A DNA stretch of 64,000 nucleotides from NCBI GenBank assembly GCA_039181265.1, contig JBCDCU010000001.1:4134-68133 (forward strand). The letters are read 5' to 3'. Positions 46,148 through 62,309 of the stretch are shown here, one piece after another (within the stretch, counting starts at the first letter, position 1; every line of letters starts with the position of its first letter). Below the pieces are notes generated by a model, which searched no databases, was not told the DNA's origin, and worked only from the letters and a program-made list of their open reading frames with translations. This DNA comes from Pseudomonadota bacterium (GTDB lineage: Bacteria; Pseudomonadota; Alphaproteobacteria; Rhizobiales; JACESI01). The translations under genes and the position numbers were made by a program.

Positions 46148-49100
46148 TTAAGCAGCAGCCTCTTCCGCCGACGGCTCGGCTTTCACTGAAGATGTGCCCA
46201 TCAAATCAGCCGCAAGCCGGTTGGCACCGCCAATGTCGAGTTTACCGGTTCCAAGAAGCGGGATCGCATCAACGCCGAACACGGTCTTCGGCACCATAAT
46301 CTCGCCGATACCCTTCGACTTTGCGAAAGTGAGCAATGCCTTTGCGTTGATCGCATCATCGTTGCCTTCACAAAGAAGCACGATCTGTTCGCCCTTCTTT
46401 TCATGCGGCAGGGCAACTGCACAGCAGGGTGTTTCCGGCCAGAGCTCGTTCGCAAGGCTTTCAACGGCGGTCAAAGAGACCATTTCACCACCGATCTTCG
46501 CGAAACGCTTGACGCGTCCTTTGATCGTGATGAAGCCCTTGTCATCGATGCTCACGATGTCTCCCGTGTCGTGCCATCCATCAACGGGCGGTTGAATGAC
46601 GCCAGGATTATCCACTTTGAGATATCCCATCATCACGTTCGGCCCGGTGACATGAAGACGGCCACCGTCCTCAACACCTGTCACAGGCTCAAGACGCGCT
46701 TCCATACCTGGCAGAAGGCGACCGACCGTGCCCGGCACATTGGCAAGCGGCGTGTTGATGGAAAGAACGGGAGCGGTTTCCGTCGTTCCGTAACCTTCCA
46801 GAACCCGTAGACCGAATTTCTCCGACCAGACCTGACGGGTCTCGGGGCGGACACGCTCCGCACCGGCAAACACATAGCGCAGAGAATAAAAATCGTAGGC
46901 GTGGGCCATACGCGCATATCCGCTCAGGAACGTGTCCGTGCCGAACATAACGGTCGCGTTCGTATCGTAGGCAATCTCAGGCACGATCCGATAGTGAAGC
47001 GGCGACGGATAAAGGAAGGTCGGCACACCACTCAGCAGCGGCAGAAGCGTTCCAGCCGTCAAGCCGAAAGAGTGGAACATCGGCAATGCGTTCAACACCT
47101 TGTCTTTCGGTGAGAAATCAATCACCGACGAGACCTGATTGCGGTTTGCCTGAATGTTGGCGTGGCTCAGAACAACCCCTTTCGGAAGCCCCTCGGAGCC
47201 AGATGTGAAAAGCACGACCGCTTTATCTTCCGGCTTGGCCGAACCGCCAGCCTGCATCCGGAAGGCAAGCTTCGGAAACTTCGCTTTGACGAAGCCGCGA
47301 ACCTTGTCGAAGGTCGAGATCTCTTCGCGGATGTCTTCCAGGTAGACCACCTCTGCCATTTCACCGACAGCTTCGATCAGGGCATCGAGCTTTCCAAGGT
47401 CCACAAAGCGCCGGGATGTGAAGACCGATTTGATCTCAGCGGCAGTGATTGCGGCCTGAATGCCCGCACGACCAGCGGTAAAGTTCAGCATTGCGGGTGT
47501 GAACCCGTAAGCCTGGCATGCAAAGAAGCTCACAACGCAGCCGTTCGAATTCGGCAGAAGAAGTCCGACCGTATCGCCAGCCTTTGCATGTTTCGTCATC
47601 TTGGCACCGAGGATGAACGATCCCGCAATGATCCGATCATAGGAAATCGGAGTGCGTTCCATATCCTCAAGGACCGCGGGCGTGCCGAAGGTGGTTTTCG
47701 CGTCGATCAGGCTTTCAAAAAGCGTGGTCCGAGGCCGCTTCGTATCGAAGACCATTTGAGCCATCACTTCATGAAGCGCTGAGGCAGCAGCGGCTCGTTT
47801 CTTGCGCCCAACGAGGCCCTCCGGAATGCTGATTTCCTGCTTTTCAAGGACCGTCAGCGTGATCTCGGGAAACCACTTCGTCGGAAGTTTGTCGTTGAGG
47901 TAAGACACTTTCGAGAATTGCGCGCCTTCGATATGGATCGGGATCAACGGTGCACCGGCTTTCTCGGCAATCATCGCCGGACCATCATAGACCTTCATGA
48001 GCGCGCCCGTGCGTGTCAGGCGGCCTTCAGGGAAGATGATCAGGCGGCGTTTTTCATCACGCACCTGTTTCACCATTTTGCGCACCGAAAGCGGGCTTGT
48101 CGGATCAACAGTGACGAGATCGAAGAACAGGAAGGCCGGGCGCACCCACCATGCTTTGGCGATCTGGGTATTGATCGCAAAGGCTGGACGTCCAGGCAGA
48201 AGGCATCCGAGCAAGACCGCATCGAGATAGGATACGTGGTTGGCGATAACGACGGCAGGCGCGTTTGGATCACCATATCCTTCAAGGTTCTTCACGCGCG
48301 CTTTGAAAAGCGTGCGCAGGAGCGACGCACCGACGGATTTAATCACTTCGGATGCGAGTTTCACGAAGAGATATCCAGCAAGGACAATCGAAAGAGCGGC
48401 AAAACCGAACAATAAAGCCGGGAACTCGAACCCGATCGCGAGCAACCCAGTCGCTGCGAGACTCACAGCAACCATCAGAAGCGAGTTCAGGATGTTGCTT
48501 CCCGCAATCGCGGTTGAGCGGTTTTCGTCTTCGGTCACCGTCTGGAAGATCGCATAGAGCGGTACGGTGAAAACTGCGCCGAAGAAAGCAACGGCAACCA
48601 TGTCAAACAGGATTCGAACCCTATCAAAGGACGCTAGGAGATCGGTCACACCAACAGCGGAGACAGGTGGTGTATAGGCCTGCAGCGCAAAACCGAAATC
48701 TGCGAGGAATACCGCCATACCAAGCACACCAAATGGGACGTGCCGTGGTGAGATGTCACCTTTGAGGAGCTTTGAGATCGCAAAGGTTCCCAAGCCAATC
48801 CCGATAACAAACGCCGCGACAAGGATGTTTGCTGCGTTGGCCGTAAGATTGAGCATATCCTTCGCAACGCCCGGAAGCGTGCTGATGACCACAAGACCAA
48901 TCGCCCAGAACCAAGCAATTGCAAGCGTCGTTTGCAGAAGGGTCCGATTGGCGAGGACCGCTTTGACGGCTGTGATCGAACTCGTCACCGGGTTTTTGGA
49001 AAGCGTCACGCCGTCCTTCAGGAAAGAAGGGATAGACGGCAGTCGCAAGCTCGAAACATAGCTGAGAGCTGAACCGGCGATCAGAAGACCTGCCAACACA

Positions 49101-49624
49101 CCAGTGTGACCGTTGCCGGCGAGATACCCACCGACGAGAAGACCAAGCAGGATCGCAATGAAAGTCGAGCTTTCGAAGAGTGCGTTAGCTGAAACCAAAT
49201 GCTTGCGCGCCAACATCTGCGGCAGAATAGAATACTTCGCCGGACCGAAGACCGTCGATTGCACCGCGTAAAGGAAAAGGGTCAACAAGAGCAGAGGGCC
49301 CGATTGCGTGAAGAGCGCACCGGTTGCAAGGACCGCGAGGCCGATTTCGACCAGACGTGTCCGCTGGACGATCGTTGCTTTGTCGTATTGATCGTTGAGC
49401 GCACCCGAGACACCGGAAAACATGAGAAACGGTGCGATATAGATGATCGCTCCAAGCATCAGGGCAATATCGGTGGAGAGCCCGAACAGAGACAGTCCGC
49501 CGAAAGCCACCAGGAAGGAGAATGCGCTCTTCAAGGTGTTGTCGGTGAATGCACCCAGGAATTGTGTGATGAAGAGCGGGAAGAACGTTTTGTCTTTGAA
49601 GAGTTCGTTACGCGGCAAAAACAT
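46148..49624 (-). CDS. Triple-fusion lysophospholipid transporter (MFS, LplT-like) / acyltransferase (PlsC-type) / acyl-ACP synthetase (Aas-like)
   Basis: N-terminal MFS domain with about 12 TM segments; H(X)4D box NHVSYLD; AMP-binding LFTSGSEGLPKGVVLSH. ATG 49624 is preceded by AAGGA. Confidence 0.88.
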   Translation of the reverse strand: MFLPRNELFKDKTFFPLFITQFLGAFTDNTLKSAFSFLVAFGGLSLFGLSTDIALMLGAIIYIAPFLMFSGVSGALNDQYDKATIVQRTRLVEIGLAVLATGALFTQSGPLLLLTLFLYAVQSTVFGPAKYSILPQMLARKHLVSANALFESSTFIAILLGLLVGGYLAGNGHTGVLAGLLIAGSALSYVSSLRLPSIPSFLKDGVTLSKNPVTSSITAVKAVLANRTLLQTTLAIAWFWAIGLVVISTLPGVAKDMLNLTANAANILVAAFVIGIGLGTFAISKLLKGDISPRHVPFGVLGMAVFLADFGFALQAYTPPVSAVGVTDLLASFDRVRILFDMVAVAFFGAVFTVPLYAIFQTVTEDENRSTAIAGSNILNSLLMVAVSLAATGLLAIGFEFPALLFGFAALSIVLAGYLFVKLASEVIKSVGASLLRTLFKARVKNLEGYGDPNAPAVVIANHVSYLDAVLLGCLLPGRPAFAINTQIAKAWWVRPAFLFFDLVTVDPTSPLSVRKMVKQVRDEKRRLIIFPEGRLTRTGALMKVYDGPAMIAEKAGAPLIPIHIEGAQFSKVSYLNDKLPTKWFPEITLTVLEKQEISIPEGLVGRKKRAAAASALHEVMAQMVFDTKRPRTTLFESLIDAKTTFGTPAVLEDMERTPISYDRIIAGSFILGAKMTKHAKAGDTVGLLLPNSNGCVVSFFACQAYGFTPAMLNFTAGRAGIQAAITAAEIKSVFTSRRFVDLGKLDALIEAVGEMAEVVYLEDIREEISTFDKVRGFVKAKFPKLAFRMQAGGSAKPEDKAVVLFTSGSEGLPKGVVLSHANIQANRNQVSSVIDFSPKDKVLNALPMFHSFGLTAGTLLPLLSGVPTFLYPSPLHYRIVPEIAYDTNATVMFGTDTFLSGYARMAHAYDFYSLRYVFAGAERVRPETRQVWSEKFGLRVLEGYGTTETAPVLSINTPLANVPGTVGRLLPGMEARLEPVTGVEDGGRLHVTGPNVMMGYLKVDNPGVIQPPVDGWHDTGDIVSIDDKGFITIKGRVKRFAKIGGEMVSLTAVESLANELWPETPCCAVALPHEKKGEQIVLLCEGNDDAINAKALLTFAKSKGIGEIMVPKTVFGVDAIPLLGTGKLDIGGANRLAADLMGTSSVKAEPSAEEAAA

Positions 49625-49692
49625 AATCTTTTCCTTTCGAAAGAAAGGAGGTCGATACTCTTCAATAAAAGAAGATATCGACCTCTTAACTA

Positions 49693-49974
49693 TCAAGCGG
49701 CCTCTTTACGGCCAATATCCATCAATAATTTTTCGGTTTTGGCATCCTCGATCCTATGGACAAGACGTTTAGATTCTTGTTCATCGCGGATCGTTTTTGT
49801 GACGGTAATTGCAGACTGAACAATCATAAGTGTTGCCATGGTTAAGAACCCCTTAGTTGCGAGATCAAGCGGCAAGAAGAAGATTCCAATTCCCATCATC
49901 GCCATCGATATTCCGAAATTTGCGATCGTGAATGATTTCCAGGCTGCAGTATTTTGAATATTTGATTCAGTCAT
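49693..49974 (-). CDS. YiaA/YiaB two-helix membrane protein family
   Basis: 93 aa; FTIANFGISMAMMGIGIFFLPLDLATKGFLTMATLMIVQSAITVTKTIRDEQE. Confidence 0.7.
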   Translation of the reverse strand: MTESNIQNTAAWKSFTIANFGISMAMMGIGIFFLPLDLATKGFLTMATLMIVQSAITVTKTIRDEQESKRLVHRIEDAKTEKLLMDIGRKEAA

Positions 49975-50008
49975 TTTCTTTCTCCGTTACTGGTTTGAGG
50001 TGGTATTG

Positions 50009-50698
50009 CTATTTTTCAGAAGCAGTTAGTCTTGATTTCAGACGAGCGAGCACGTCTTCCGCACTTGTCTTGATCGCCGGACCACACCCGGCTTCGGCGA
50101 GTTTTTCAGCGACCTTTTCCGGGTCGGCGGATTGCGAGAATGTGTTGAGGGCATCCTCGGTCGCATCGATATGTTGCTGGCGTGCTCTGAGGCGGTTGAG
50201 TGTTTCTTCCGCTTCCACGAGGGTGCTGAGCCCGGAGCCGGGGACGTCCTGACGAATACGGTGCGCCTTATCGGTTGCGGTCGCAATCCGTTGACCCCGC
50301 CGCAGGTCCTTAAGACGCGTTTCAGCCGTCAGCACGTTTGTCCGCAGGCGCTGTATTTCCTTCGAAAAAGTGGCTTGAGCTTCTTCGCTGTCCTTTAGCT
50401 CGGTCTCGAGGGTTGCGATCGTCTCTGCTGCTTCCTCCGCAAGGTCGGATTTTTCGGCTTCCAACGCCGCGATCGCTCGCGTCTCCAGATCCTCGACCTG
50501 TTTACGCATTCGTTCGCAGTGCGCTTTTTCCTGTTCGTTATGGGCGATCGCGACCGCGACAGCCTTCCGAGCAGCTTCTACAGCTTTCGCAGCATCGCGC
50601 ATTTGCTGTTGAAGAATGAGCAGCGCATGTCGGTCGGTAATCTCTTCGGCGGCGTTGTGACTGGCCGCTCGAAATAGCGTGAATAATTGTTTGAACAT
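50009..50698 (-). CDS. PspA/IM30 family membrane-stress protein
   Basis: Long coiled coil with a family-like N-terminus MFKQLFTLFRA...LILQQQMRDA and LAEEAA. ATG 50698 is preceded by GGAG. Confidence 0.78.
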   Translation of the reverse strand: MFKQLFTLFRAASHNAAEEITDRHALLILQQQMRDAAKAVEAARKAVAVAIAHNEQEKAHCERMRKQVEDLETRAIAALEAEKSDLAEEAAETIATLETELKDSEEAQATFSKEIQRLRTNVLTAETRLKDLRRGQRIATATDKAHRIRQDVPGSGLSTLVEAEETLNRLRARQQHIDATEDALNTFSQSADPEKVAEKLAEAGCGPAIKTSAEDVLARLKSRLTASEK

Positions 50699-50714
50699 TG
50701 CCGATACTCCATTT

Positions 50715-50729
50715 GTGAACATTGTTCAC
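50715..50729. promoter_or_regulatory. Operator-like palindrome GTGAACA-T-TGTTCAC
   Basis: Perfect 7-1-7 inverted repeat in the pspA-like/tetR divergent spacer. Confidence 0.6.
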
Positions 50730-50769
50730 GATTGAATTTACGCAGATCCTCGCTATAGTCAAGAAGAAA

Positions 50770-50784
50770 ATGAACAATGTTCAC
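50770..50784. promoter_or_regulatory. Second operator-like palindrome aTGAACA-A-TGTTCAc
   Basis: 6-1-6 inverted repeat with the same half-site, 20 nt upstream of the tetR ATG. Confidence 0.6.
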
Positions 50785-50803
50785 GAAATGAAGGCGTTGG
50801 TTA

Positions 50804-51385
50804 ATGGCAGGAAAACGGGAAGCGCTTCGGCAGGATCTGACAAACCGTTTGATCGAGGCGGCCACAAACAGGATCATCACGTCCGGACTGAACGCGCTGC
50901 GAGCGCGGCAGATCGCGGAGGATGCGAAGTGTGCGCTTGGAACGATCTACAAGTGCTTTGCGGATTTCGACGACCTGATATTGCACGTGAATTCAAGAAC
51001 TCTTGCCGCCCTTGGTGCGGCGCTCAAAAAAGCAATGTCCGAGAGTGGTGAAGGCGAAACACCACTTGAAATCCTCGCTGTCGCTTATATGCGCTTTGCG
51101 AAGGAGAACACGCATCTGTGGGCCGCGCTCTTCGAACACCGGATGCCGCAGAATGTCCCTGTTCCCGATTGGCATCTCGAAGAGCATTCCGCCTTGTTCG
51201 ATAACCTGTCGAGCATCATTTCCGGAAGCTCAGAGGGGCTTTCAGCTGAGGAGGCGAATGTGCGCGCCCGCACTTATTTCTCGGCAATCCACGGTATTGT
51301 CTCAATTAGCCTTCAGGACCGTTTTGTCGGCGTCCCTCTGGAAAGGCTGGAGGACGAAGTGCGCACATTTGCACGCGCGCTTTGA
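50804..51385 (+). CDS. TetR/AcrR family transcriptional regulator
   Basis: N-terminal HTH LRARQIAEDAKCALGTIYKCFADFDDL; 193 aa. Confidence 0.88.
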   Translation: MAGKREALRQDLTNRLIEAATNRIITSGLNALRARQIAEDAKCALGTIYKCFADFDDLILHVNSRTLAALGAALKKAMSESGEGETPLEILAVAYMRFAKENTHLWAALFEHRMPQNVPVPDWHLEEHSALFDNLSSIISGSSEGLSAEEANVRARTYFSAIHGIVSISLQDRFVGVPLERLEDEVRTFARAL

Positions 51386-51426: not shown

Positions 51427-53076
51427 ATGTCACCCATCAAGCGAAGTCTCCTTGCGGTTGCATTCATCGTCTTTCTCGCAGCAAGCGCCGCATGGTTCTT
51501 TTCAGTCCACGAAACCCCTTCGCTCACCAGAGCAAGCAATATTGACGCGCTGGAAGGACCGGAACTCGGCGCCGCCGAATTTGAGGGCGCCTCCTTTGGC
51601 GGCATCAGCATGACGGCCCTTGAGACCCATGCTGTTCCATGGCGGCTTGTCGCGGCCGCCCTCATTCTTGATGAGAAAGCGGACAATCCAGACGCCGAGG
51701 TTTCACGAGAAACACTCAATAGCATTCTTGCTCGGTTTGGCTTTTTGGTTGGGGCGACACCCGTTAATCGGCCCTCCATTATCACACCGTCGGAGAGCGT
51801 CCTTCCACTTGGATTCACATACGGAGATCTCGCTCCAATTGGCGGAGCGAACGTGTTCGTCGCCAATCTTGGATGTGCCGCCTGCCATGCCGGGGTCACT
51901 TATGATGAAAACGGTCGACCGCAACCGGATCGGGCCTGGCTGGGCATGCCGAACACGTCGATTAATCTCGAAGCCTATGTCACATCGGTTTTCGAAGCAC
52001 TCGTCAGGCAAGCCGACAATACGGAAACGTTTCTTGCCACCGTTGGCGATCTCTTCCCGGAATTGCATGTCAGTGAAGCCCTCACTCTGCGCTTCTTTGT
52101 GCTTCCAATTGTAAAAGATCGACTGGCAGAGTTGTCGGAAGCACGCGCTCCCCTGCCCTTTCCAAATGGTGTTCCAGGAAGCACGAACGGTGTCGCGGCC
52201 CTCAAATGGGCATTCGGAACACCGCTTCTTGAAGGTGGCCCGAACGATAACGGTATCGTATCGATCCCCGATCTCGGCCACCGGTCATGGCGGACAAGCC
52301 TTCTTGCTGACAGCGCCTACGCACCGACGGGAAAACCACGCCAGCGCCAAATCAGGAAAAGCGACATTTCTGAAGGCCACCTTAGCGATCTCGCCGCGAT
52401 CACGACATTCTTCACCGTACCAAGTATGGGCGTTGACTCCGGCACGGCAATTCATCATCTCGACAAGGCAACGGCGATTTTCGACTTTATCGAGAACGCT
52501 TACGCGCCGCAGGCGTTTCCGGGCACAATCGACAGTGTAGCCGCACAACGCGGCGCCCGTATCTACAACGAAAATTGTTCGGAATGCCACGGCACCTACG
52601 AATGGCAGGGTGAGCGACCGGTCCTTGCGCTTTTCCCAAACTGGCTAGGTGATGTCGGAACCGATCCGCTTCGCGCGAGGACTTTCACTCAGGACCTAGC
52701 AGACGCGATTGGAGAAACATCGCACAAGAACGTCCTGAGCGCCGTCTCGACCGGTAAATATGCGGCACCACCGCTTACCGGTGCCTGGGCATCTGCGCCT
52801 TATCTTCACAACGGATCTGTTCCGACCATCACCGCGCTCCTCAGCCCGGATCTGCGACCCACCCGCTTTCAGGTGGGTGGTCATTCGCTCGACTTTCAAA
52901 ATCTCGGTATTGCACTTCGAAACGGTGGCGGTTTCCCGGAAGACTACAAACCGTTTTCAGAACCTGTTTGGTTTGACACATCGATTACGGGCCATGGCAA
53001 CGATGGTCATGAGTTCGGAAGCGAATTGAGCGATGACGAAAAACGCGACCTCATCGAATTCCTGAAGCTCTTGTAA
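51427..53076 (+). CDS. Secreted di-haem c-type cytochrome (peroxidase-like, family uncertain)
   Basis: N-terminal TM/signal segment; two CxxCH motifs (LGCAACHAG, NCSECHGTY); a C-terminal EKRDLIEFLKLL reminiscent of the CCP/MauG-like C-terminus. Confidence 0.65.
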   Translation: MSPIKRSLLAVAFIVFLAASAAWFFSVHETPSLTRASNIDALEGPELGAAEFEGASFGGISMTALETHAVPWRLVAAALILDEKADNPDAEVSRETLNSILARFGFLVGATPVNRPSIITPSESVLPLGFTYGDLAPIGGANVFVANLGCAACHAGVTYDENGRPQPDRAWLGMPNTSINLEAYVTSVFEALVRQADNTETFLATVGDLFPELHVSEALTLRFFVLPIVKDRLAELSEARAPLPFPNGVPGSTNGVAALKWAFGTPLLEGGPNDNGIVSIPDLGHRSWRTSLLADSAYAPTGKPRQRQIRKSDISEGHLSDLAAITTFFTVPSMGVDSGTAIHHLDKATAIFDFIENAYAPQAFPGTIDSVAAQRGARIYNENCSECHGTYEWQGERPVLALFPNWLGDVGTDPLRARTFTQDLADAIGETSHKNVLSAVSTGKYAAPPLTGAWASAPYLHNGSVPTITALLSPDLRPTRFQVGGHSLDFQNLGIALRNGGGFPEDYKPFSEPVWFDTSITGHGNDGHEFGSELSDDEKRDLIEFLKLL

Positions 53077-53082
53077 TTTGCT

Positions 53083-54087
53083 TCACACAGCATCCGGGAT
53101 GATGATCTCCTCAACCGGCAGGCGCGCCCTCGCCGCAGCTTCGTCTCTTGCCACATCACTTACAAGCGGCTTTCCGAAAACGAAGGCCGTCAGAAGTTTT
53201 CGATCGTTGGAAAGACCGGCTTTCTTGTGAAGGACCGCACACGTCTCGGCATCGTCGGTCAGTGCTGCGACGACCTGCGAAGAAAAACCAGCTTTCTCGA
53301 TTTCGAGCCAATGGCGATAAAAGTGCCTGCCGCTTTCAAGCGGTGTTTCCTCGACTGGTCTGTGCACAAGTAGGAACCCAGCAGCGCGGGAATATCGCTT
53401 CGCCTCCGATACTAAAAAACCGGCGAGCCCGAGCTTGTGCAAGACACCAAAGGTCCGGCCAAGGACGAAAAAAGCGGCAAGGGCTTCAAACCCGCTCATA
53501 TGCATTGCTTTGGCATTGAGGCCATCGCGGGACCAGTGCGGATGAACGGGCTTAAACCGCATCCATGACACGAGCTCTTCCCGAAAATCAGCATCAGCCA
53601 TAAATCTCAGGCTCGCACCATCGGCGAGGCGACCAATCTGCCGGACGTCGTCATTACCCGCAAAGATCGCGCAGGACGATCCGCCAAGGGAAACAGCCCG
53701 CTCACGATCTTCATCAGTCGCTCGTTCAAAAGGTCCGCGCCAGGAACGGCGACTTTCGACAAAAGCTGCGAGAGCGTCAACCTCGCCGCCGGGGCTGAAG
53801 TGCAAGGCACCAAGGTGTTGATATGCACCGCTCTCTGAAACAGTCTTTTCAGCCTCAAATCGCGTCGAGAACCCTTGCCGCGATGCCGCGATCGCTGCGC
53901 CCTCGAGACAGGCACCGGCGCTGATCATTACATCGCGGTCTGTCGGGTCGCCATGCGGAAGGCGAACGCTACGGTCCCGCATGAGGATAAGGCGATCGTC
54001 ATCGAACACCCATCTAACCGGCTGTATATTGTGGACGCTCGGCGCAAGACTGGCTTCTTCAACAATCGTTTTGAGATCGGGTTTCAT
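53083..54087 (-). CDS. Acg-type (tandem) nitroreductase-family FMN oxidoreductase
   Basis: EASLAPSVHNIQPVRW near the N-terminus; about 334 aa. ATG 54087 lies 1 nt after the upstream stop. Confidence 0.65.
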   Translation of the reverse strand: MKPDLKTIVEEASLAPSVHNIQPVRWVFDDDRLILMRDRSVRLPHGDPTDRDVMISAGACLEGAAIAASRQGFSTRFEAEKTVSESGAYQHLGALHFSPGGEVDALAAFVESRRSWRGPFERATDEDRERAVSLGGSSCAIFAGNDDVRQIGRLADGASLRFMADADFREELVSWMRFKPVHPHWSRDGLNAKAMHMSGFEALAAFFVLGRTFGVLHKLGLAGFLVSEAKRYSRAAGFLLVHRPVEETPLESGRHFYRHWLEIEKAGFSSQVVAALTDDAETCAVLHKKAGLSNDRKLLTAFVFGKPLVSDVARDEAAARARLPVEEIIIPDAV

Positions 54088-54088
54088 C

Positions 54089-55177
54089 TCACAGCACCTT
54101 TTTGAAGAGGTGCAGACGATGAAGAGGCTTTGCTCCGAGCTTTTCCGCCTGGCGCAGGCTTGCCGCATTGATATCGGCAATCCACGTTAAACCGAGCTCC
54201 CGATACCCGGCGGTACGGAGCGCTTTAAGCGTCCGGTCGAGCATTGCACCCATAATGCCGCGCCCATGGCATTTTCGGGCCACCGAATAAAATATGATCA
54301 CCGCACGCTTCCGGTTCAGCCGATAGCGTAAATAGTGAAAGGGTGTCAGAAGTCCGAAACGGGATTTCGTCGCCCGCAAAAAGCCATTGAGATCAGGAAT
54401 GCAGATCACGACACCAACCGGTTCATTGTCGCACAGAAGGACACTGGAAAGCCGCGGATCCAGGATCGTCATCATCTCACCCGCCTGAAAGACAAACTCT
54501 TCCTTTGATAGCGCTACGAACATCGGATTGTCGGCAAAGCCATCATTAAGCACGAGCCGCGCATCCTCCATGCGCGCCGGAAAGCTTTTCTTTTCGATGG
54601 GTGTAAACGAATAGGAGGCGTTCGACGGCAATGTCTTTTCGGTGAGTTTCGCACTGGCAAGATCAAGCGAGAATGTTGTCATCGGGAAGTATGCTTCAAA
54701 CCCGTTTGCTTCCAGAAGGCGCGGAATATGAGGTGGATTCTGCACCATATCCGTAAAGCCATGATGATCGAAACCATCAGTCTGAACGCCGCATTGCTGC
54801 ATCGCCGTCAGATTGAAATTCCCGCATAGCGTGTCGAAGCCGCCCGCTCTCGCCCATTGGGATGCCGCCTCAAGCAAAGCCCCTGCGACCTCTCCATTGT
54901 CTTCACAATCGAAGAAACCGAAGCTTGCCTGATTGGTCTTGTGCAAAGCGTTCGAGGCCGCGTGATTGTGGACCACGATCCGACCCGCCGGACGACCATT
55001 TCTAATTGCGGTGAAATACGTGAAATCATCCTCGGAGGGGAAAAGCGGGTTCACGCCCGCCGAGAGCATGCGCTTAAGGTCGGATCGCATCGGAGAGACA
55101 TAGGCATCACTCGAAGGATAAACGGCGAATGGAACCTCAAAGAAATCGTCAAAACTTCGCTCTCTGATTTCGACCAT
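54089..55177 (-). CDS. GNAT-family acyltransferase-like protein (long form, about 360 aa)
   Basis: C-terminal GNAT core VARKCHGRGIMGAMLDRTLKALRTAGYRELGLTWI. Confidence 0.6.
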   Translation of the reverse strand: MVEIRERSFDDFFEVPFAVYPSSDAYVSPMRSDLKRMLSAGVNPLFPSEDDFTYFTAIRNGRPAGRIVVHNHAASNALHKTNQASFGFFDCEDNGEVAGALLEAASQWARAGGFDTLCGNFNLTAMQQCGVQTDGFDHHGFTDMVQNPPHIPRLLEANGFEAYFPMTTFSLDLASAKLTEKTLPSNASYSFTPIEKKSFPARMEDARLVLNDGFADNPMFVALSKEEFVFQAGEMMTILDPRLSSVLLCDNEPVGVVICIPDLNGFLRATKSRFGLLTPFHYLRYRLNRKRAVIIFYSVARKCHGRGIMGAMLDRTLKALRTAGYRELGLTWIADINAASLRQAEKLGAKPLHRLHLFKKVL

Positions 55178-56370
55178 CAGACCGCCTCCGCTTTCGACAT
55201 GATGTGAGAAAGGCGCTGGACGACCGCGAGTTCAAGTTCCGCTCCAGGCGCGTTCGCAATCGATGGCAAACTCAAGAGAACGATCCTCAGCGGATCTTCA
55301 GAGGCAAGCATCGCATGGGTCGCCCCATACCGTTCGAAGAGCCAGGCAAGTTCCTCGTCAAGCAGTTCATCTTTTAGATCAGTCCGGTCGCCGGCCCTTA
55401 TGATCCTTTTTGTCTGCAGATGCGTCTTAAGACCCGCGCCGAAGTCAGCAAGATCTGCTTCCTCCAGAATGAGTGCGCCGGAGACCAACGGATGATCCTG
55501 AAGACCGGTCAGAAACTCAATATGAGATTGCGGTGATGAATGCGCGATGTAGGAGAGGAGGGTCGCCCGCTCCCCTTCCCGTTGCAGGGATCGTGCTTCT
55601 GTGAAGACCTGAAGAAGGAGCCCGGTACACAAAATGATCGCCGCCGCTTGAATGGATTGTGGGAGGGTCAGCTCCGCCAGAAAGGAGATCGCACCCACCG
55701 CAACACCGACGCTGACCGCAATGAGAGCAAAGTTCCCAAGAATATGAAATGTGTTGGTGCGAAGCCGATCAACGCTGAGCGACAGCCAACATAGAAACAG
55801 GATCGCGACCCCGGAAAGACGAACAGGTGAATCGATCAGCGCGCTTCTGAAATCGGTGATCGCGAAGGGAATGATGAGAAGGAGCGACCAGGCAAGCCGG
55901 TCGATGATGCGGTTCTCCGCCACAGTAAGATCGGAACGATCCCGGCCAATCACCCAGACCCCGATCAGGATAATCGAACCGATCTGGAAGGCGAGAAGAC
56001 CTTGCCAGAGGGCCGGATCATCAAACAGCGGTGCAAATGGCGCGAAAAGAGTGAAAAACGCCACACCTGCAACGATGCCGATTTTTAAGAGACGATGCGC
56101 ATGGCGCCGCATCAGACCTTCGCAGAGGATGAGCATGGCAAGCGGTATGAGCGCTGCCGCGATCACGTTGATCACGACAAAAAGTGCGTAACCGGTCGTC
56201 CAGAACAACACGCGCGATGCGAGCATGGCGACGAGGATGGAAATCGCAAAACTATAGCGCTGTGCGATCCACGGCATCCGGCTGGAACGCTTGATGCTCA
56301 TGCGAAGGATGAGCAGACCCGCAATCGCTGCAATAGAGACGAAACTGTCCGCAACCAGCGTCGCACCCAT
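55177..56370 (-). CDS. Polytopic membrane protein (about 7-8 TM segments) with a C-terminal soluble domain, uncharacterised
   Basis: Hydrophobicity pattern in 397 aa. Overlaps the downstream gene by 1 nt. Confidence 0.6.
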   Translation of the reverse strand: MGATLVADSFVSIAAIAGLLILRMSIKRSSRMPWIAQRYSFAISILVAMLASRVLFWTTGYALFVVINVIAAALIPLAMLILCEGLMRRHAHRLLKIGIVAGVAFFTLFAPFAPLFDDPALWQGLLAFQIGSIILIGVWVIGRDRSDLTVAENRIIDRLAWSLLLIIPFAITDFRSALIDSPVRLSGVAILFLCWLSLSVDRLRTNTFHILGNFALIAVSVGVAVGAISFLAELTLPQSIQAAAIILCTGLLLQVFTEARSLQREGERATLLSYIAHSSPQSHIEFLTGLQDHPLVSGALILEEADLADFGAGLKTHLQTKRIIRAGDRTDLKDELLDEELAWLFERYGATHAMLASEDPLRIVLLSLPSIANAPGAELELAVVQRLSHIMSKAEAV

Positions 56371-56373
56371 TGC

Positions 56374-57249
56374 TCAGCCCGCCATCATATTTTTCAAAAA
56401 ACGCCGGACGAAAGGGCGTGCGATCGCCGTGATGATTGCATTTTGCGGCCGCTCAACACGTCCCTTATAGGGATTGAAGAACCACCCGCGATAATCGGCA
56501 CCGTGGGGTCTCCCGAGAACTCCGTTGATTGCCTCATAGGCCATCAGCATACCTGTGGTCAGCACCATCGGAGCAAACGACATACGACTGCGCTTTCCGG
56601 CCGCCACCTCTCCGGCGAGATCAAGATCAATGTAATGGCGCGATGAAGAATGAAGGATCACATGCTCGGCTTCGCGCAGGAACGCTTCACTCCGTTTCTC
56701 GTCATCCAGCTGGTTCCACTCGGTTCCGAGCGTCGGATAGTTGAGCCGCTCTTCCGGGGACGGGTCAGCCGGGCTCGTCACGTAGATAGAAGGGAGCGGC
56801 GAAGCATAGGCATCGATCACCGCTTTCTTTAAACTCCGGGCAGTGCGGTAAAGAAGGAGCGACGCCCCGAGATCGTCAGTTCCGTTGACAACGATGGCGC
56901 TCTGATCGATCGCGGCACTGACATGATCAGGCCATTCGGAGCGAAAGACCGTAATCTCGATGTCGGGATTGATCGTGCGACAGATCTCGGCCGTTGCTTC
57001 TGCCTTATGCTTGCCAATCGTCTCGGCGAAAGCAAATGCCTGACGATTGAGATTCGAGATTTCGAATTCGTCGATATCGGCAAGGATCAAATGACCGATT
57101 CCGGCACGCGCGAGCGCAAAAACACTGGCGCCGCCCATACCCCCGGTCCCGCATACGAAAACACAGGAATTGCGAAGAGTTTGCTGTTCGATCTGCGTGA
57201 CAAAACCCAGATTGCGTGTCGTGAATTCTTCATAGGTGAATGCGGTCAT
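56374..57249 (-). CDS. ThiF/HesA/MoeB-family E1-like adenylyltransferase
   Basis: Rossmann/ATP motif VFVCGTGGMGGASVFALARAGIGHLILADIDEFEISNLNRQ. Confidence 0.82.
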   Translation of the reverse strand: MTAFTYEEFTTRNLGFVTQIEQQTLRNSCVFVCGTGGMGGASVFALARAGIGHLILADIDEFEISNLNRQAFAFAETIGKHKAEATAEICRTINPDIEITVFRSEWPDHVSAAIDQSAIVVNGTDDLGASLLLYRTARSLKKAVIDAYASPLPSIYVTSPADPSPEERLNYPTLGTEWNQLDDEKRSEAFLREAEHVILHSSSRHYIDLDLAGEVAAGKRSRMSFAPMVLTTGMLMAYEAINGVLGRPHGADYRGWFFNPYKGRVERPQNAIITAIARPFVRRFLKNMMAG

Positions 57250-58196
57250 GAGGATCGTCCCCGCAGGTCGCCCCAGGATCGGGAGGCGTCAAACCAATAG
57301 ACAACAGGAAGCGCAATGCGCTGCAAGAAAACGAAAGCGCCCGCAAAGAGCAAGGTCAGGAATGAACCGGGCGGGACAGATTTCTGCAAATACGTCCGTG
57401 CCGCATTGAGGTCGATTTCACCAAGCTGCAGCACGTCATCACCACGCTCATAATCAAGGGCGTCATCGCAAAACCGATTGTAGATCTCGTCCCTGTGTTT
57501 CTGGGCTTCATCAAAGCTTTTTTTCAAATCATCTGATCCACCGGTATAGGCATTGGTGATCACGAAACGATCCTCATCAAATCCGGCATCGGAACCAACA
57601 CCGAAAACATGCCGGTGATCGCGCATGATTCGTCTGGCAAGAAGAAGATGCGTGAGACTGAGCCGATTGCGGTCCTCCGGCACCGGATAAACATTCGAAA
57701 ATGTTTCTGACACCATTCCAACAACAGCGGGCACCTGAGTGACATTGGATATCCAGACGGGACGGAAACCGTTACGCACAAAGATCAGGATGCAGGTTAA
57801 ACCATAAAGAACCCAGGAAAGCCCACGCGAGCGGACATTCGGATCGACCATAACCAATCCGAGGTGAAGCACGGTTTTCGGTTCCTGTCCGTACTCAACC
57901 TTCATGACAGCAAGAGCATTGAACGCGACCGGCTGACCGGTTTCGCGATCATGAACAAGTGTGATGACGGTGCGCTCCAGCGCCTCCTTATCTTCGGAAA
58001 AGACGCCATAGGTTAAAGCGCCCCGTGCGATCGTTTTCGACGCGACATCAATGAGATCTTGCCGAAGGGCCGCAAGATCCGCTTTATCCATCCAGAGGGC
58101 TGGCCGCTCAAGAATCCGCGTTTCAAACCCGTCAGAGGTATTGAAGCGGAGATCCATATGATCTTTGGATAAGGATTGTCTCAGCGCAGCAAACAT
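57246..58196 (-). CDS. Uncharacterised protein with a GNAT-like core and a C-terminal hydrophobic segment
   Basis: VLHLGLVMVDPNVRSRGLSWVLYG resembles GNAT motif A. Overlaps the ThiF-like gene by 4 nt. Confidence 0.5.
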   Translation of the reverse strand: MFAALRQSLSKDHMDLRFNTSDGFETRILERPALWMDKADLAALRQDLIDVASKTIARGALTYGVFSEDKEALERTVITLVHDRETGQPVAFNALAVMKVEYGQEPKTVLHLGLVMVDPNVRSRGLSWVLYGLTCILIFVRNGFRPVWISNVTQVPAVVGMVSETFSNVYPVPEDRNRLSLTHLLLARRIMRDHRHVFGVGSDAGFDEDRFVITNAYTGGSDDLKKSFDEAQKHRDEIYNRFCDDALDYERGDDVLQLGEIDLNAARTYLQKSVPPGSFLTLLFAGAFVFLQRIALPVVYWFDASRSWGDLRGRSS

Positions 58197-58336
58197 TTGT
58201 CTGGTTTAAAAGAGTTTTGTTGCGGATCGGTAAAATCGACCTTGCCGGATTACCGGCAAACGCAGCCCGGTCCTAATCAACATATTGCAGACCAAACACA
58301 GGCGCCGATACTCTCTAGTGGACGGCAATAGAAGCA

Positions 58337-58711
58337 ATGGAGGTCAGAGTGGAAAAAGTGACAGGCATTGGTGGCGTTTTCTTCAGATCGGAAAATCCTG
58401 AAGCGCTCGCCAAATGGTACGAAGAAGCGCTCGGTGTCGACATCCAAGGAACGATCTGGATGCAGTCGGCTGGTCCGACGGTCTTCATGCCTTTTGCCAA
58501 AGATACCGAATACTTTGATCGGCCGGAACAGCAATGGATGATCAATTTCCGCGTGGCAGACCTCGATGCCATGATCGCTCAGTTAGAGGCACGCGGCATC
58601 GACGTCATTACCAATCCGGAATGGGATTCAGTCGCCGGTAGATTTGCGCGGATCCATGACCCCGAGGGCAATCCAATTGAGTTATGGGAACCGGCGCAAC
58701 AAGCTCCCTGA
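58337..58711 (+). CDS. VOC (glyoxalase/bleomycin-resistance/dioxygenase) family protein
   Basis: 124 aa; VTGIGGVFFRSENPEALAKWYEEALGV ... DPEGNPIELWE. Confidence 0.8.
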   Translation: MEVRVEKVTGIGGVFFRSENPEALAKWYEEALGVDIQGTIWMQSAGPTVFMPFAKDTEYFDRPEQQWMINFRVADLDAMIAQLEARGIDVITNPEWDSVAGRFARIHDPEGNPIELWEPAQQAP

Positions 58712-58764: not shown

Positions 58765-60165
58765 TCAAACGGCCTTCCGTAAGGCCTCGTCGGCGCGGAT
58801 GCGAATATCTTCAAATGCCTGATGCGACAGGAGATCCCCGTTTCTGAAAACAGGTTGGAGGAGATCTTCCTCGTCTGATACCTCATCAAGCCGTTTTGCC
58901 TTCAACGTCCCGTTGACTGCAACAACAGCCTGACGTCCCGCTTTCGATGCCTTTGCCGGGTCCGTCGCGGGCCGCTTCGCAACATCCTGCCAGGTTCCGT
59001 CCGCAATCTTCATCGCATTCGCCTTCATCGCAAATCGCAATGTGTCGCGATTGACGTGCTGGAGCAGTCCGCCACCCATGCCGAACGCAATATTGTCGAT
59101 GGACCATCCTTCATCCACCAACTGCGTCACGAGTTTCTCAATCGTCTCGACGGTCATGCCGTCACCTTGAATGACGCGCACGGCATCATTGAGCACCCGA
59201 TATCCTTTCGCGTTCTCACGCCCGCCATAGTGGTTCCAAAGCTTTTCAATAACCCTGATCGGTGTTGTAACCGGGTCTCCGGAATCGGGTCGAACCACCA
59301 GAGTTCCGCCTTTTGCCAGAACCCGTTCGCGAAGTTTTCCGCCCCACAATTGGTCGACTGCATGGTCGAGATCATAGCTGTCGGAAACCACCGCAACGAG
59401 GCTCCCTTCACCGCCAAACTCATCGATCATGTTGGTATAAGCATCCGCCTCGCGGGACGCCCCCCAACTGGTCATCGTTGAATGCTCTGCCGCGGGGATA
59501 GAAAAGCCTGGCATGTCAGCATCGTAAAAGTCGATTGCCGCGTTAAGCGCCTCCATTGTGTCAGTGCCTGCAAAATTGACCAGATGCGCCATGCCACCAA
59601 GTGCGGCACTTTCAGCCGATGAAACGCCCCGCGCACCGAAATCATGAAGCTTGAATTGTATCTGACCATCCGGATCTTCACTGGTTTGAACTAGCCCTTT
59701 GTAGATCACCTCTTTGCAACGAAGAGACAGCGTCGCGACTGTCGATGGATACCAGACCGCGCGAAGCAGTGCCGTCTCGATAAAAGTCGAGAGCCAGGGT
59801 AATCGCTCATCGGTGTTCTCCACCTGGACAAGCGGCACACCGTTTGGAACAAGCATTCCCTCAGGAAGGGCTTTTATCTCGAGTGGCAATAGACCGGAAT
59901 GCTCGCTGAGAATGATCTGCCAGCCCTCGTCGTTGAACGGCACACCATGACGGCGGCAAAGCTCCCTCGCCTCATCTATATTTTCGAGGGTGATCGGTTG
60001 ACTGAGCGATGCTTTCCAAAAGGCCTGCAGGCCGAAGAAGAGGACGCCGTTCGAAAAGTCGTTCTCCCGCGCCTCGATATACGCTGAAATGCGCGTCGCT
60101 TCTGGCGGATATTGCCGGAAATGGGATTGCTTATAGCTATCCGTTGCAAGAATCGGATTTGTCAT
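58765..60165 (-). CDS. nadV: Nicotinamide phosphoribosyltransferase
   Basis: NPILATDSYKQSHFRQYP N-terminus, 466 aa. Confidence 0.88.
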   Translation of the reverse strand: MTNPILATDSYKQSHFRQYPPEATRISAYIEARENDFSNGVLFFGLQAFWKASLSQPITLENIDEARELCRRHGVPFNDEGWQIILSEHSGLLPLEIKALPEGMLVPNGVPLVQVENTDERLPWLSTFIETALLRAVWYPSTVATLSLRCKEVIYKGLVQTSEDPDGQIQFKLHDFGARGVSSAESAALGGMAHLVNFAGTDTMEALNAAIDFYDADMPGFSIPAAEHSTMTSWGASREADAYTNMIDEFGGEGSLVAVVSDSYDLDHAVDQLWGGKLRERVLAKGGTLVVRPDSGDPVTTPIRVIEKLWNHYGGRENAKGYRVLNDAVRVIQGDGMTVETIEKLVTQLVDEGWSIDNIAFGMGGGLLQHVNRDTLRFAMKANAMKIADGTWQDVAKRPATDPAKASKAGRQAVVAVNGTLKAKRLDEVSDEEDLLQPVFRNGDLLSHQAFEDIRIRADEALRKAV

Positions 60166-60222: not shown

Positions 60223-61287
60223 TCAAAGGTCAGCCATCACATGAATGATTGACCAATGATCTTCAAAAAACTGTTCGGGTCTCAAATCCCCGAGGCGGTA
60301 CCAATGGGCAGTCTTAGCGTCGTCGCCTCCCTTCACAGAAAACAGCTTTCTTCGCTCAGGAAGGCGAAAGAGGTAAGCGTGTGTGATGATCCGTCCACGC
60401 AAAGACCGGTTCGGCTGATCGAAAACCCGGGTTCTCGTATCGTCGATAAAGGAGGCCAGCATAGCTGGAGGGATCTCGCCCTTATGGTCGCTGATCGCCG
60501 TCTCTTCTTTGAGTTCTCGGACCGCCGCATCCCTTATTGTTTCACCAGGATCGAGAAACCCTCCCGGAAGGGCCAACAGCCCCTTGCCGGGCAAATTTCC
60601 CCGCTCAACGAGGAGAATATGGCCAGACTGAATGACAACGGCATCTGCCGTTACAAACGGGCCGCGGCCCCATTCCTGCGGATAGGCACGAAGATATTCG
60701 GCTTCCTCAAGCAGCCCCCGGAACGCATTCGTCATTTTGAAGGCATCAAGCCATTCGCAGACACCTTCTGACAGAACCGAATTCGAAATGACCGGGATGC
60801 GCTGAAAGTATGTCTCACGGATATCGGTCGAAGAGAACGTCCCGTGCTGGCTGCCGATCTGGATATTGTCCCACTCCGGAAAGAGCTTCAGATAATAGCT
60901 GGACTTGTCCTTGCCATAGCCGGTCAACGCGGTTCTGACATCTTTCAGGCCATGAAGGACAACACCGGAATTGTTGTGCAGATCGAGGATGGTCGCATTA
61001 ACGCATCTTTGAACCTCAGCACACCAGGCCGTATCGGAATAGGGATGATCGGCAATCGGACGAAGAATAATACGGCCGGTTGCGATCTCATGCTTGAAGA
61101 CTTTGTTGAAGATCTCGACCCGCTCTTCAAAAGTGAACGGATTGCGGGGATCAGGCGCACAATGGGCTGATCCAACGAGAATAATCAGCTTCTCCACTTG
61201 CTCAAGCGCAGAGCGGATTACGGCTTCATGCCCGATATGAAGGGGTTGGAAACGGCCAACGAAAACGCCGTAGTGATAGTCTGACAT
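60223..61287 (-). CDS. nadM: Bifunctional NMN adenylyltransferase / Nudix hydrolase
   Basis: GVFVGRFQPLHIGHEAVI nucleotidyltransferase motif, and the Nudix box GGFLDPGETIRDAAVRELKEET. ATG 61287 is preceded by GGAG. Confidence 0.87.
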   Translation of the reverse strand: MSDYHYGVFVGRFQPLHIGHEAVIRSALEQVEKLIILVGSAHCAPDPRNPFTFEERVEIFNKVFKHEIATGRIILRPIADHPYSDTAWCAEVQRCVNATILDLHNNSGVVLHGLKDVRTALTGYGKDKSSYYLKLFPEWDNIQIGSQHGTFSSTDIRETYFQRIPVISNSVLSEGVCEWLDAFKMTNAFRGLLEEAEYLRAYPQEWGRGPFVTADAVVIQSGHILLVERGNLPGKGLLALPGGFLDPGETIRDAAVRELKEETAISDHKGEIPPAMLASFIDDTRTRVFDQPNRSLRGRIITHAYLFRLPERRKLFSVKGGDDAKTAHWYRLGDLRPEQFFEDHWSIIHVMADL

Positions 61288-61460
61288 TCGATACTCCATC
61301 GAAATTCTGTGGTGCACCGAACTCCTCGGTGCAAGCTTAAGGTAAGCGTTCAGGCAGGCCTTGCACAAGGCGTTTTCACCGATACCAGCGAAACTTGGTT
61401 AAGGCATTGTATCTCTTTCGAACACAAGCATACGCTAAGGCAATCACCCGCTGCTGCGCG

Positions 61461-62309
61461 TTAATTGAGGACATTCATAAGCGCCTGAATTTTCGGAGAC
61501 CGGACGCCGCGTCGCCAGATCAGGTAAGTTCTGAGCTTATTCTGGCCCTCGGGTAACGGATGCGCACTGACCTTGTCGCGTTCCGGGAAGGCGGCAAGCA
61601 CGCTCTCCGGCATAAGGGCGATACCCATTCCAGCAACAACCGATCCGAACATCGCATGGTAGGAACCAAGTTCGATTGTTTTAGAAGGGATATCGTCGCG
61701 CGCCTGATACCAGGCTTCCAACTGACGGCGGTGCGGACAACCGTTTTCGAAAACGATAATCGTATCCGGGCTCGGTGATTGATCGTCAATTCGCGGGTAA
61801 TCGCGTGGAGCGATCAGGACAAGACTTTCTTCAAAAGCAAGTGCACTGTCGAAGCGTGCTTCAGCGATAGGTTCCGCGATCAAGGCCGCTTCCAATTCAC
61901 CCGCCATGACAGCCGTTGAGAGTTGCCGGGGGTTCCCGGTCCGAAGTTTTAAATCCACTTCGGGATAACGTTGGTAAAACCGCGTGAGCGGACTTGGGAG
62001 TCGAACGGCAGCCGTACTTTCCATAGCGCCGAGACTGAATTCGCCACGCGGTACATCGTCACGTAACGCTGCTTTCGCTTCCGCGGCAAGTGCCAACAGA
62101 CGCTCGGCATAACCCAACAGGACGCGCCCATCCGGCGAAATCAGCATTTTCTTACCTTCACGCAAAAACAGGTCTACACCGAGTTCCTGCTCAAGCTGTT
62201 TAATGCGCGCGGTAATGCTCGATTGCACCCTTCCGAGCTTTTCGGACGCACGGGTAATCCCGCCTTCCGATACAACAGCGCGAAACACTTCAAGGTCACG
62301 TAAATCCAT
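61461..62309 (-). CDS. LysR family transcriptional regulator
   Basis: N-terminal HTH MDLRDLEVFRAVVSEGGITRASEKLGRVQSSITARIKQLE. Confidence 0.9.
   Translation of the reverse strand: MDLRDLEVFRAVVSEGGITRASEKLGRVQSSITARIKQLEQELGVDLFLREGKKMLISPDGRVLLGYAERLLALAAEAKAALRDDVPRGEFSLGAMESTAAVRLPSPLTRFYQRYPEVDLKLRTGNPRQLSTAVMAGELEAALIAEPIAEARFDSALAFEESLVLIAPRDYPRIDDQSPSPDTIIVFENGCPHRRQLEAWYQARDDIPSKTIELGSYHAMFGSVVAGMGIALMPESVLAAFPERDKVSAHPLPEGQNKLRTYLIWRRGVRSPKIQALMNVLN

Follow-up and report, generated by a model that had tools for sequence, protein, structure and literature searches.

Which pathway is encoded by an operon that combines an E1-like adenylating enzyme and a nitroreductase-fold flavoenzyme with two acyltransferases and a polytopic membrane protein? 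The operon comprises five minus-strand genes, here termed g1 to g5, at positions 53083-58196 of a 64,000-nucleotide stretch of DNA (the window) from an alphaproteobacterium of the Rhizobiales (GenBank assembly GCA_039181265.1, contig JBCDCU010000001.1, positions 4,134 to 68,133). An earlier note on this DNA delimited the five genes and concluded that they could not be assigned to a described system; however, profile searches place the trio of ThiF-like enzyme, FDO-type flavoenzyme and acyltransferase in the pathway type of OxzAB, TyzABC and TrzAS. On balance, we favour the reading that the operon represents the most elaborate form of a membrane-associated lipoamino-acid pathway of the oxazolone/N-acyl-dehydro-amino-acid kind. 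The pathway type is known already; what is new is the non-FeeM acyltransferases, the unannotated core formed by g1 and g3, the tandem GNAT, the cytochrome and the link to Aas and PspA.

Organization of the operon

A six-frame open reading frame (ORF) list reproduced exactly the five minus-strand ORFs and coordinates reported earlier. That inventory had missed the convergent di-haem cytochrome gene that travels with the operon, as well as the tandem nature of g4 and the g1+g3 core. The complete set is as follows.

g1: 57246-58196, minus strand, 316 aa; GNAT-fold acyltransferase of a family without annotation, with a C-terminal hydrophobic/amphipathic helix; proposed primary N-acyltransferase
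g2: 56374-57249, minus strand, 291 aa; stand-alone ThiF/E1-like adenylating enzyme
g3: 55177-56370, minus strand, 397 aa; polytopic membrane protein of an orphan family, obligate partner of g1; a role as exporter, flippase or membrane scaffold is proposed
g4: 54089-55177, minus strand, 362 aa; tandem-repeat GNAT, accessory module
g5: 53083-54087 (from the ATG), minus strand, 334 aa; FDO-type (Acg-like) flavoenzyme of the nitroreductase superfamily; proposed O2-dependent C-alpha/C-beta desaturase
Di-haem cytochrome c gene: 51427-53076, plus strand, 549 aa; periplasmic, probably of the CCP/MauG/RoxA superfamily; convergent, accessory sixth member

The genes overlap by 4 nt (ATGA) at g1/g2, are 3 nt apart at g2/g3, overlap by 1 nt at g3/g4 and are separated by a single nt at g4/g5, exactly as first described, and the internal starts are preceded by GGAGG/GGGG-like elements. 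On the 3' side the stop codon of the convergent cytochrome gene lies 7 nt from that of g5. On the 5' side g1 shares a 140-nt upstream region with a divergent small gene (58337-58711, plus strand; 124 aa, VOC/glyoxalase-like), which is absent from the 67 loci of the census described below and beyond which lies a NAMPT gene with a strong terminator. Because the junctions are tight and the flanking genes are convergent and divergent, the five genes form one well-bounded unit, and the single translationally coupled unit proposed in the earlier note is borne out by junctions, start-site elements and boundaries. The longest ORF of g5 begins with a TTG at 54180 (365 aa, 92-nt overlap with g4); the ATG is the better start because the orthologues are 298-335 aa long and 334 aa is the gene call in a 94%-identical metagenome-assembled genome (MAG; L004). 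The domain calls made at that time all hold; Pfam and NCBIfam profile searches gave PF00899 for g2 (1.3e-33), PF00583 for g4 (2e-8) and NF047509 for g5 (8e-42).

The ThiF-like enzyme and the FDO

In the pathways concerned, an N-acyltransferase makes an N-acyl amino acid, a ThiF enzyme cyclises it with ATP and an FDO desaturates the product with O2 (bioRxiv 10.1101/2020.06.11.147165; PMC10404671; PMC12856293). OxzAB was established in Pseudoalteromonas rubra and counts about 56 proteobacteria (bioRxiv 10.1101/2020.06.11.147165), the three separate genes of TyzABC from Mycobacterium tuberculosis (Rv2336-Rv2338c) form the N-acyl tyrazolone pathway (PMC10404671), and TrzS (Rv1355c) of the same species, with the acyltransferase TrzA (Rv1356c), leads from tryptophan to N-acyl tryptazolones (PMC12856293). 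TrzS, OxzB and TyzB/C are biochemically proven oxazolone synthetases paired with an adjacent N-acyltransferase (PMC12856293; PMC10404671; bioRxiv 10.1101/2020.06.11.147165). Clusters of an N-acyl amino acid synthase (NAS) with split ThiF and nitroreductase genes are predicted for N-acyl-dehydrotyrosines (PMC12479983).

Aligned with Escherichia coli ThiF, g2 keeps the GxGGxGG loop, the ribose Asp, SNLNRQ, the Lys and NGTDD (the DCTDN of ThiF), the Asp of which corresponds to D217 of TrzS. These ATP/Mg-site motifs are 100% conserved across 61 orthologues. There is no CxxC zinc motif in g2, none of its three cysteines lying in a CxxC. The best NCBIfam model of g2 is PRK08223, at 116.6 bits below the cut-off of 266, which is passed by the ThiF halves of the ThiF-FDO fusions P0327, P0372, P0374 and P0382 and of the reversed fusion P0367. 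Moreover, g2 and g5 independently match the two halves of the fused models PRK07877 ('Rv1355c family protein') and PRK14851, with E-values for g5 against the FDO halves of 9e-15 and 2e-13, respectively. The best model of g5 itself is NF047509 (Acg-family FMN oxidoreductase; 143.8 bits, cut-off 199), its match in the PDB is Acg (2YMV, 6e-7), and its APSxHNxQP and RxxWRG motifs are conserved. A hidden Markov model (HMM) of the g5 family spans the whole FDO domain of ThiF-FDO fusions with up to 86 bits; this profile gave 86 and 78 bits against two fusion FDO domains and single-sequence g5 gave 32 bits against Acg 2YMV, values that are not strictly comparable. The g5 gene is in the same operon as g2 in 50 of the 67 loci.

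Relatives of g2 were sought exhaustively among 1.84 billion 50%-cluster representatives (46 matches below 1e-30). The multidomain proteins labelled within the best 150 were the following.

P0327, P0371, P0372, P0374, P0381, P0382: ThiF-FDO
P0367: FDO-ThiF
P0359: PilZ-FeeM-ThiF (FeeM being an N-acyl amino acid synthase family)
P0352: Acetyltransf_5 (OlsB-type)-ThiF, with the source name 'N-acyl amino acid synthase of PEP-CTERM/exosortase system'
P0287: ThiF-PlsC/OlsA-type acyltransferase
P0335: ThiF-methyltransferase
P0249: ThiF-transmembrane helix-RoxA-like di-haem cytochrome
P0261, P0263: tandem ThiF-ThiF, 588 and 640 aa, with two full ThiF domains each

All of those examined, except for the two ThiF-ThiF fusions, couple ThiF to N-acyl-amino-acid chemistry. 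The same partnership is seen at locus L090, which holds neither g1 nor g3: a ThiF of the g2 family, with 325 bits to the g2 profile, and an FDO of the g5 family, with 231 bits, stand beside a NAS-like protein with weak matches, all in one region, to FeeM (3.9e-5), Acetyltransf_5 (0.007) and TIGR03694 (1.8e-5). Taken together, the fusions, the g5 HMM and L090 tip the balance towards assigning the g2/g5 module to N-acyl-amino-acid chemistry.

Two of these loci carry second-messenger domains on the acyltransferase. At L089 (5530-10043) there are three consecutive PilZ-FeeM genes, the last of which is also fused to a ThiF domain (P0359); such an arrangement points to N-acyl amino acid synthases that respond to c-di-GMP and are coupled to ThiF chemistry. 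L090 is the second such case: its NAS-like domain (1294-2511) shares one protein with a cyclic-nucleotide-binding domain, the gene overlaps the g2-family ThiF gene by 1 nt, and the g5-family FDO gene lies nearby in divergent orientation.

Conservation and nested modules

A scan for the g1 family with one genome per species revealed a relative in at least 592 genomes; the 80 best loci, which were looked at, are all from Alphaproteobacteria. Homologues of g1 and g4 led to six contexts with the same gene order (Pacificoceanicola, a Rhizobium plasmid, two MAGs, a Rhizobiaceae chromosome and Sphingomonas spermidinifaciens), five of which also have the convergent di-haem cytochrome c gene. A census was then made by tblastn over 67 species-level loci with at least 7 kb 3' of g1; as these were chosen via g1, its presence in 67/67 is by construction.

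g1-g2-g3-g4-g5 and convergent cytochrome: 21/67 loci
g1-g2-g3-g4-g5: 15/67 loci
g1-g2-g3-g5: 14/67 loci
g1-g3 only: 14/67 loci
g1-g3-g5: 2/67 loci
g1-g2-g3: 1/67 loci

The gene order is kept in loci of Rhodobacterales, Hyphomicrobiales and Sphingomonadales, the flanks of which are otherwise unrelated. The earlier note had named chance adjacency as the point to check; with the same order in at least 36 of the 67 species-level genomes and unrelated flanks, the association is not due to chance. The modules form a nested series, in which g1+g3 (67/67) contains ThiF+FDO (50), which contains g4 (36) and in turn the cytochrome (21): g4 is restricted to loci with g2 and g5 (36/36) and the cytochrome to loci with g2 to g5 (21/21). 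The invariant core is g1+g3, and not ThiF. Across the loci with g1 and g3 only, no further neighbour is conserved between genera. Because 14 genomes have ThiF and FDO without g4, g1 is a better candidate than g4 for the acyltransferase that feeds them.

The copy on the 1.09-Mb plasmid of Rhizobium sp. 32-5/1 (L002 / L027 12155-13077) has its FDO gene split into pieces of 231 and 73 aa and a shortened g3 (356 aa), and may be decaying.

The core pair g1 and g3

No Pfam or NCBIfam family matches g1, and members of its family give only marginal generic GNAT matches. The GNAT-like motif and hydrophobic tail that had been read from its sequence agree with the AlphaFold2 (AF2) model (pLDDT 83.6), which has a GNAT fold followed by a long C-terminal helix (residues ~273-302), hydrophobic over residues 273-291. 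When the model was compared with the PDB by Foldseek, 58 structures matched at E<=1e-3, and the 50 listed ones are without exception acyltransferases of the GNAT fold (NatD, 1.5e-6). The acyl-CoA motif (Q/R-x-x-G-x-G/A, beta4-alpha3) corresponds to R-S-R-G-L-S after the strand HLGLVMVDP, in near-invariant columns. At the profile level there is no relationship between g1 and g4.

The partner g3 accompanies g1 in every locus of the census (67/67). Its description as a membrane protein with a soluble C-terminal domain is matched by hydropathy, which predicts about eight transmembrane helices, conserved cytoplasmic loops rich in Arg, His and Glu, and a soluble cytoplasmic tail of 140 aa; R38, R53, E84, H90, K96, R143, N153 and R158 are invariant. 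The family profile has no match in the PDB, and the only Pfam matches, three marginal ones to 7TMR-DISM among 31 members, are not credible. The 79 homologues, of 245-426 aa (nearly all of about 400 aa), are annotated 'hypothetical', without Pfam domains or fusions. One of the g3 homologues (P0451, 298 aa, 40% identical) is filed under the sea spider Nymphon striatum, where it is most likely a bacterial contamination or symbiont contig in the assembly.

The accessory members g4 and the cytochrome

The PF00583 match of g4 covers only the C-terminal half, and the AF2 model (pLDDT 89.3) consists of two consecutive GNAT domains. The leading Foldseek match is the tandem GNAT MAB_4324 (7Q3A; 5e-16, TM 0.64-0.69), and further matches include GlcN N-acetyltransferase, the tandem GNAT of the clavulanate pathway and MshD (among them 5KF1 and 2WPW).

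The cytochrome has an N-terminal signal/anchor and two CxxCH motifs. It passes the RoxA-like profile PF21419 (4.6e-19; 68.1 bits, threshold 26.7), reaches 148.6 bits against the di-haem peroxidase model NF040606 (cut-off 150) and lies far below the cut-offs of the RoxA/B/C models; its only relative in the PDB is RoxA (4B2N). The gene is directly downstream and convergent in 21 of the 67 loci. In the metagenomic protein P0249, a g2-like ThiF domain (44% identical) is joined by a hydrophobic linker to a homologue of the cytochrome (36% identical), and on its contig this gene is preceded by genes for a 379-aa GNAT and a 305-aa protein, the last junction being a 4-nt overlap. As a singleton, P0249 lends support but is not decisive.

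Proposed pathway

Direct observation covers the genes present, how they are conserved and nested in modules, the protein folds, intact motifs for ATP and FMN, and the neighbourhoods of the families; from this the following scheme is proposed. Held at the inner membrane by its C-terminal helix, g1 would N-acylate an amino acid from a fatty acyl-CoA or acyl-ACP. By homology, g2 would adenylate this N-acyl amino acid at its carboxylate and close the oxazolone. Likewise by homology, here to TyzC and TrzS, g5 would use FMN and O2 to introduce a C-alpha/C-beta double bond, giving an unsaturated oxazolone or, once the ring opens, an N-acyl-dehydro-amino acid. More speculatively, g4 might tailor the product, either by a second acylation or by passing the acyl group of the activated azlactone on to an acceptor with an amine or a hydroxyl; an unsaturated oxazolone, being an activated azlactone, might serve g4 as acyl donor. 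Equally speculatively, g3 might take the anionic lipid at its Arg/His-rich cytoplasmic face and flip or export it, and the periplasmic di-haem cytochrome might oxidatively modify the exported product. These results support the idea, put forward when the locus was first described, that an E1-like enzyme together with a nitroreductase-fold flavoenzyme and acyltransferases modifies small molecules, and the chemical analogy drawn then, cyclodehydration with FMN-dependent dehydrogenation, followed the right logic.

Several observations weigh against this scheme. An acyltransferase is present, but it is not of the FeeM/acyl-homoserine lactone (AHL) synthase type of the characterised systems (OxzA, TyzA, TrzA and NasY): PF21926 (FeeM) and PF13444 (Acetyltransf_5) are matched by 0/47 g1-family and 0/50 g4-family members, and neither FeeM nor BjaI is among the top 50 structural matches of g1. 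Against classical ThiF/MoeB models g2 scores 85-90 bits, similar to the fusions (~90-117 bits). The best model of g5 represents the Acg/Rv3131 family, and the M. tuberculosis members of this family (Acg, Rv3127 and Rv3131) are FDO-B proteins without an oxazolone link, the oxazolone-linked subgroup being FDO-A (PMC10404671); the scores against fusion FDO domains and against Acg do not separate the two placements for g5. R540 of TrzS is not conserved in g5 (RRSWRGPF vs RRTDRIRY). Furthermore, 14 of the 67 genomes hold g1+g3 without ThiF/FDO nearby, so that the function of the core does not depend on oxazolone chemistry. The roles given to g3, g4 and the cytochrome are guesswork, within the limits that topology and nested co-occurrence set.

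A bolder version of the scheme appears unlikely to us. In it, the g1-g3 pair, with at least 592 species-level genomes, would be a lipoamino-acid synthase/exporter not recognised before, the unsaturated oxazolone made via ThiF would be no end product but an acyl donor that g4 couples to a second acceptor, and the conjugate would be exported and, in the periplasm, oxidised by the RoxA-like enzyme, yielding a new class of envelope lipid tied to the Aas/PspA stress response. Such coupling by g4 would, if true, amount to ATP-driven, non-ribosomal formation of amide or ester bonds.

Genomic surroundings and alternative readings

Beyond the cytochrome gene, the following genes were assigned by Pfam and NCBIfam.

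TetR_C_33 regulator: 50804-51385, plus strand
PspA: 50009-50722, minus strand
YiaAB: 49693-49974, minus strand
LplT-Aas fusion: 46148-49696, minus strand; 1182-aa LplT-acyltransferase-acyl-ACP synthetase (PRK06814, 1411 bits)

This block (46148-51385) is found no more than 10 kb from g1 in 15-17 of the 67 loci and takes three different arrangements. In Bosea, the aas stop codon lies 4-5 nt before g1 on the same strand, and pspA-yiaAB-aas-g1-g2-g3-g4-g5 form one co-directional array. In Pacificoceanicola (L001), a gene for a FadD-like acyl-CoA synthetase is directly upstream of g1. A fatty-acyl-dependent g1 fits these surroundings, because the neighbouring Aas and FadD-like enzymes both activate fatty acids. 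The block is possibly a source of acyl donor or a membrane-stress context, and the PspA/Aas link suggests an envelope-lipid role.

A gene for a TetR_C_33-type regulator is also found near the cluster where PspA and Aas are missing, for example in Sphingomonas (L008 14164-14757; also the end of L002 and L004 14773-15354), and it is a candidate dedicated regulator of the cluster. Further neighbours lie on the other side of the operon. A NAD salvage pair, consisting of a NAMPT-like nicotinamide phosphoribosyltransferase (58765-60165, minus strand) and a NadM-type adenylyltransferase-Nudix fusion (60223-61368, minus strand), is syntenic in the 94%-identical MAG (L004) and outside the conserved gene set; it is followed by a LysR regulator (61461-62309, minus strand). 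The only small intergenic ORF, of 43 aa (58206-58337, minus strand) in the region upstream of g1, looks spurious, and this region is not conserved between loci.

The recurrence near g1, at times in operonic arrangement, of LplT-Aas (which stands for lysophospholipid re-acylation), PspA, YiaAB and a FadR-like TetR can also be read as a sign of membrane-lipid head-group remodelling. Here g1 would acylate the amine of a carboxylate-bearing membrane lipid or lysolipid (e.g. one containing serine or ornithine) presented by g3, and the ThiF and FDO enzymes would activate and desaturate the head group in situ for envelope repair or under stress, with no free N-acyl amino acid being formed. An invariant core made of a membrane-anchored GNAT and a polytopic membrane protein is in keeping with such a role, as are the ThiF-PlsC/OlsA-like fusion among the g2 relatives and the link of the M. 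tuberculosis tyz genes to oxidative-stress resistance (PMC10404671). However, the partners in the closest ThiF fusions are soluble synthases of the FeeM/OlsB type, whose products are free N-acyl amino acids, and the characterised ThiF/FDO pairs all act on free N-acyl aromatic amino acids (PMC10404671; PMC12856293; bioRxiv 10.1101/2020.06.11.147165). The Aas link, moreover, is seen in only about a quarter of the loci, mostly in Hyphomicrobiales, and part of it may be synteny. We therefore hold head-group remodelling to be doubtful and retain the lipoamino-acid pathway.

Modification of a ribosomal peptide or nucleotide peptide, by an azol(in)e cyclodehydratase/dehydrogenase pair or by an MccB plus GNAT system of the microcin C kind, is very improbable. 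Peptide-modification systems can hold nitroreductase-fold dehydrogenases and GNAT immunity enzymes, and g2 is similar to PaaA (5.5e-10) and MccB (6e-9) through the shared E1 core. It is over this core only that g2 aligns with MccB, without the N-terminal extension, and its Rossmann fold starts from about residue 20, with no RRE or peptide-clamp N-domain. There is no YcaO among the neighbours, as was already recorded in the earlier note, and no conserved small ORF, for which junctions of at most 4 nt leave no room; g5 is of the FDO/Acg type, not the SagB type. The peptide analogies drawn in that note (azole peptides and MccB) thus lack a precursor, YcaO and a peptide-clamp domain. A protein-directed E1-like system, be it for sulfur-carrier (ThiS/MoaD) activation or a ubiquitin-like conjugation/anti-phage module, has hardly any claim at all: although g2 matches ThiF, MoeB and Cap2 E1-E2 models through its adenylation core, all ThiF/MoeB equivalog models are far below their cut-offs, the protein lacks a CxxC zinc site as well as any rhodanese, E2 or JAB partner, no ThiS/MoaD-like GG-ending ORF of 45-130 aa occurs within 35 kb (in agreement with the absence noted earlier), and PADLOC matches only residues 20-150 of g2 with at most 57 bits and none of the other five proteins. 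The RiPP, sulfur-carrier and E1-E2 (Cap2/Bil-type) defence readings fail on their own defining features.

Implications

The chemistry of oxazolone and N-acyl-dehydro-amino-acid lipids was discovered in 2021-2025 and has been characterised in only a few gammaproteobacteria and mycolic-acid bacteria. If the lipoamino-acid reading is true, this chemistry would extend to Alphaproteobacteria of ecological importance by the hundreds, among them roseobacters, rhizobia, Bosea/Bradyrhizobium and sphingomonads, and two sizeable unannotated families, those of g1 and g3, would obtain a first working role. The loci form a natural dissection series (g1+g3, then with ThiF/FDO, then with the tandem GNAT, then with the periplasmic cytochrome), which makes the function of each step testable, and the link to Aas and PspA leads to a concrete physiological hypothesis, namely envelope lipid stress.

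Comparison with known systems

In the literature searched, an association of such clusters with a tandem GNAT, a di-haem cytochrome or Aas/PspA is undescribed, and we know of no tandem GNAT described in oxazolone clusters. In its two-GNAT fold (TM ~0.6-0.65) g4 resembles MshD, MAB_4324 and the tandem GNAT of the clavulanate pathway, and as in MshD an acyl-CoA motif is detectable in the C-terminal half only; however, its identity to these proteins is only 10-15%. The cytochrome shares two CxxCH motifs, a signal sequence and a RoxA-like domain with the di-haem CCP/MauG/MbnH/RoxA superfamily, but differs from the di-haem peroxidases and RoxA in falling just under the NF040606 cut-off and far under those of RoxA/B/C. 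Enzymes of this superfamily carry out periplasmic oxidative tailoring (MauG and MbnH) or cleave C=C bonds (RoxA); to our knowledge, none acts on lipoamino acids.

OxzAB and TrzAS have the same two catalytic domains, ThiF and FDO, fused in one oxazolone synthetase, with the acyltransferase gene directly upstream; PRK07877 and PRK14851 are models built on such fusions. In the present operon, in contrast, these domains are split into two genes with two genes between them, the resemblance is distant (23% identity between g5 and the best fusion FDO domain), and there are five or six genes instead of two.

TyzABC also consists of separate, clustered genes, and its enzymes have the roles proposed here for g1, g2 and g5: N-acyltransferase, ATP-dependent cyclase in the form of a stand-alone ThiF-like protein, and desaturase in the form of a stand-alone monomeric Acg-like FDO. 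The Tyz acyltransferase, of about 320 aa, was likewise first annotated as hypothetical, and it too has an adjacent membrane protein, MmpL9, suspected to act in export. Unlike g1, which belongs to another GNAT family and carries a membrane helix, TyzA is structurally closest to FeeM and the AHL synthases; the Tyz cluster has no tandem GNAT, g3-type membrane protein or periplasmic cytochrome, and tyzA is divergent from tyzBC, whereas the five genes here are translationally coupled. This comparison with TyzABC is based on its published description.

The clusters predicted for N-acyl-dehydrotyrosines (PMC12479983) use a canonical NAS (FeeM/NasY) and, unlike the present operon, have no conserved membrane protein, tandem GNAT or cytochrome. 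In them, too, ThiF and nitroreductase have separate genes, tightly packed with that of an N-acyl amino acid synthase and sometimes that of a methyltransferase as tailoring enzyme; the products observed are open-chain N-acyl-dehydrotyrosines, which shows that the oxazolone need not be the end product and can be an intermediate.

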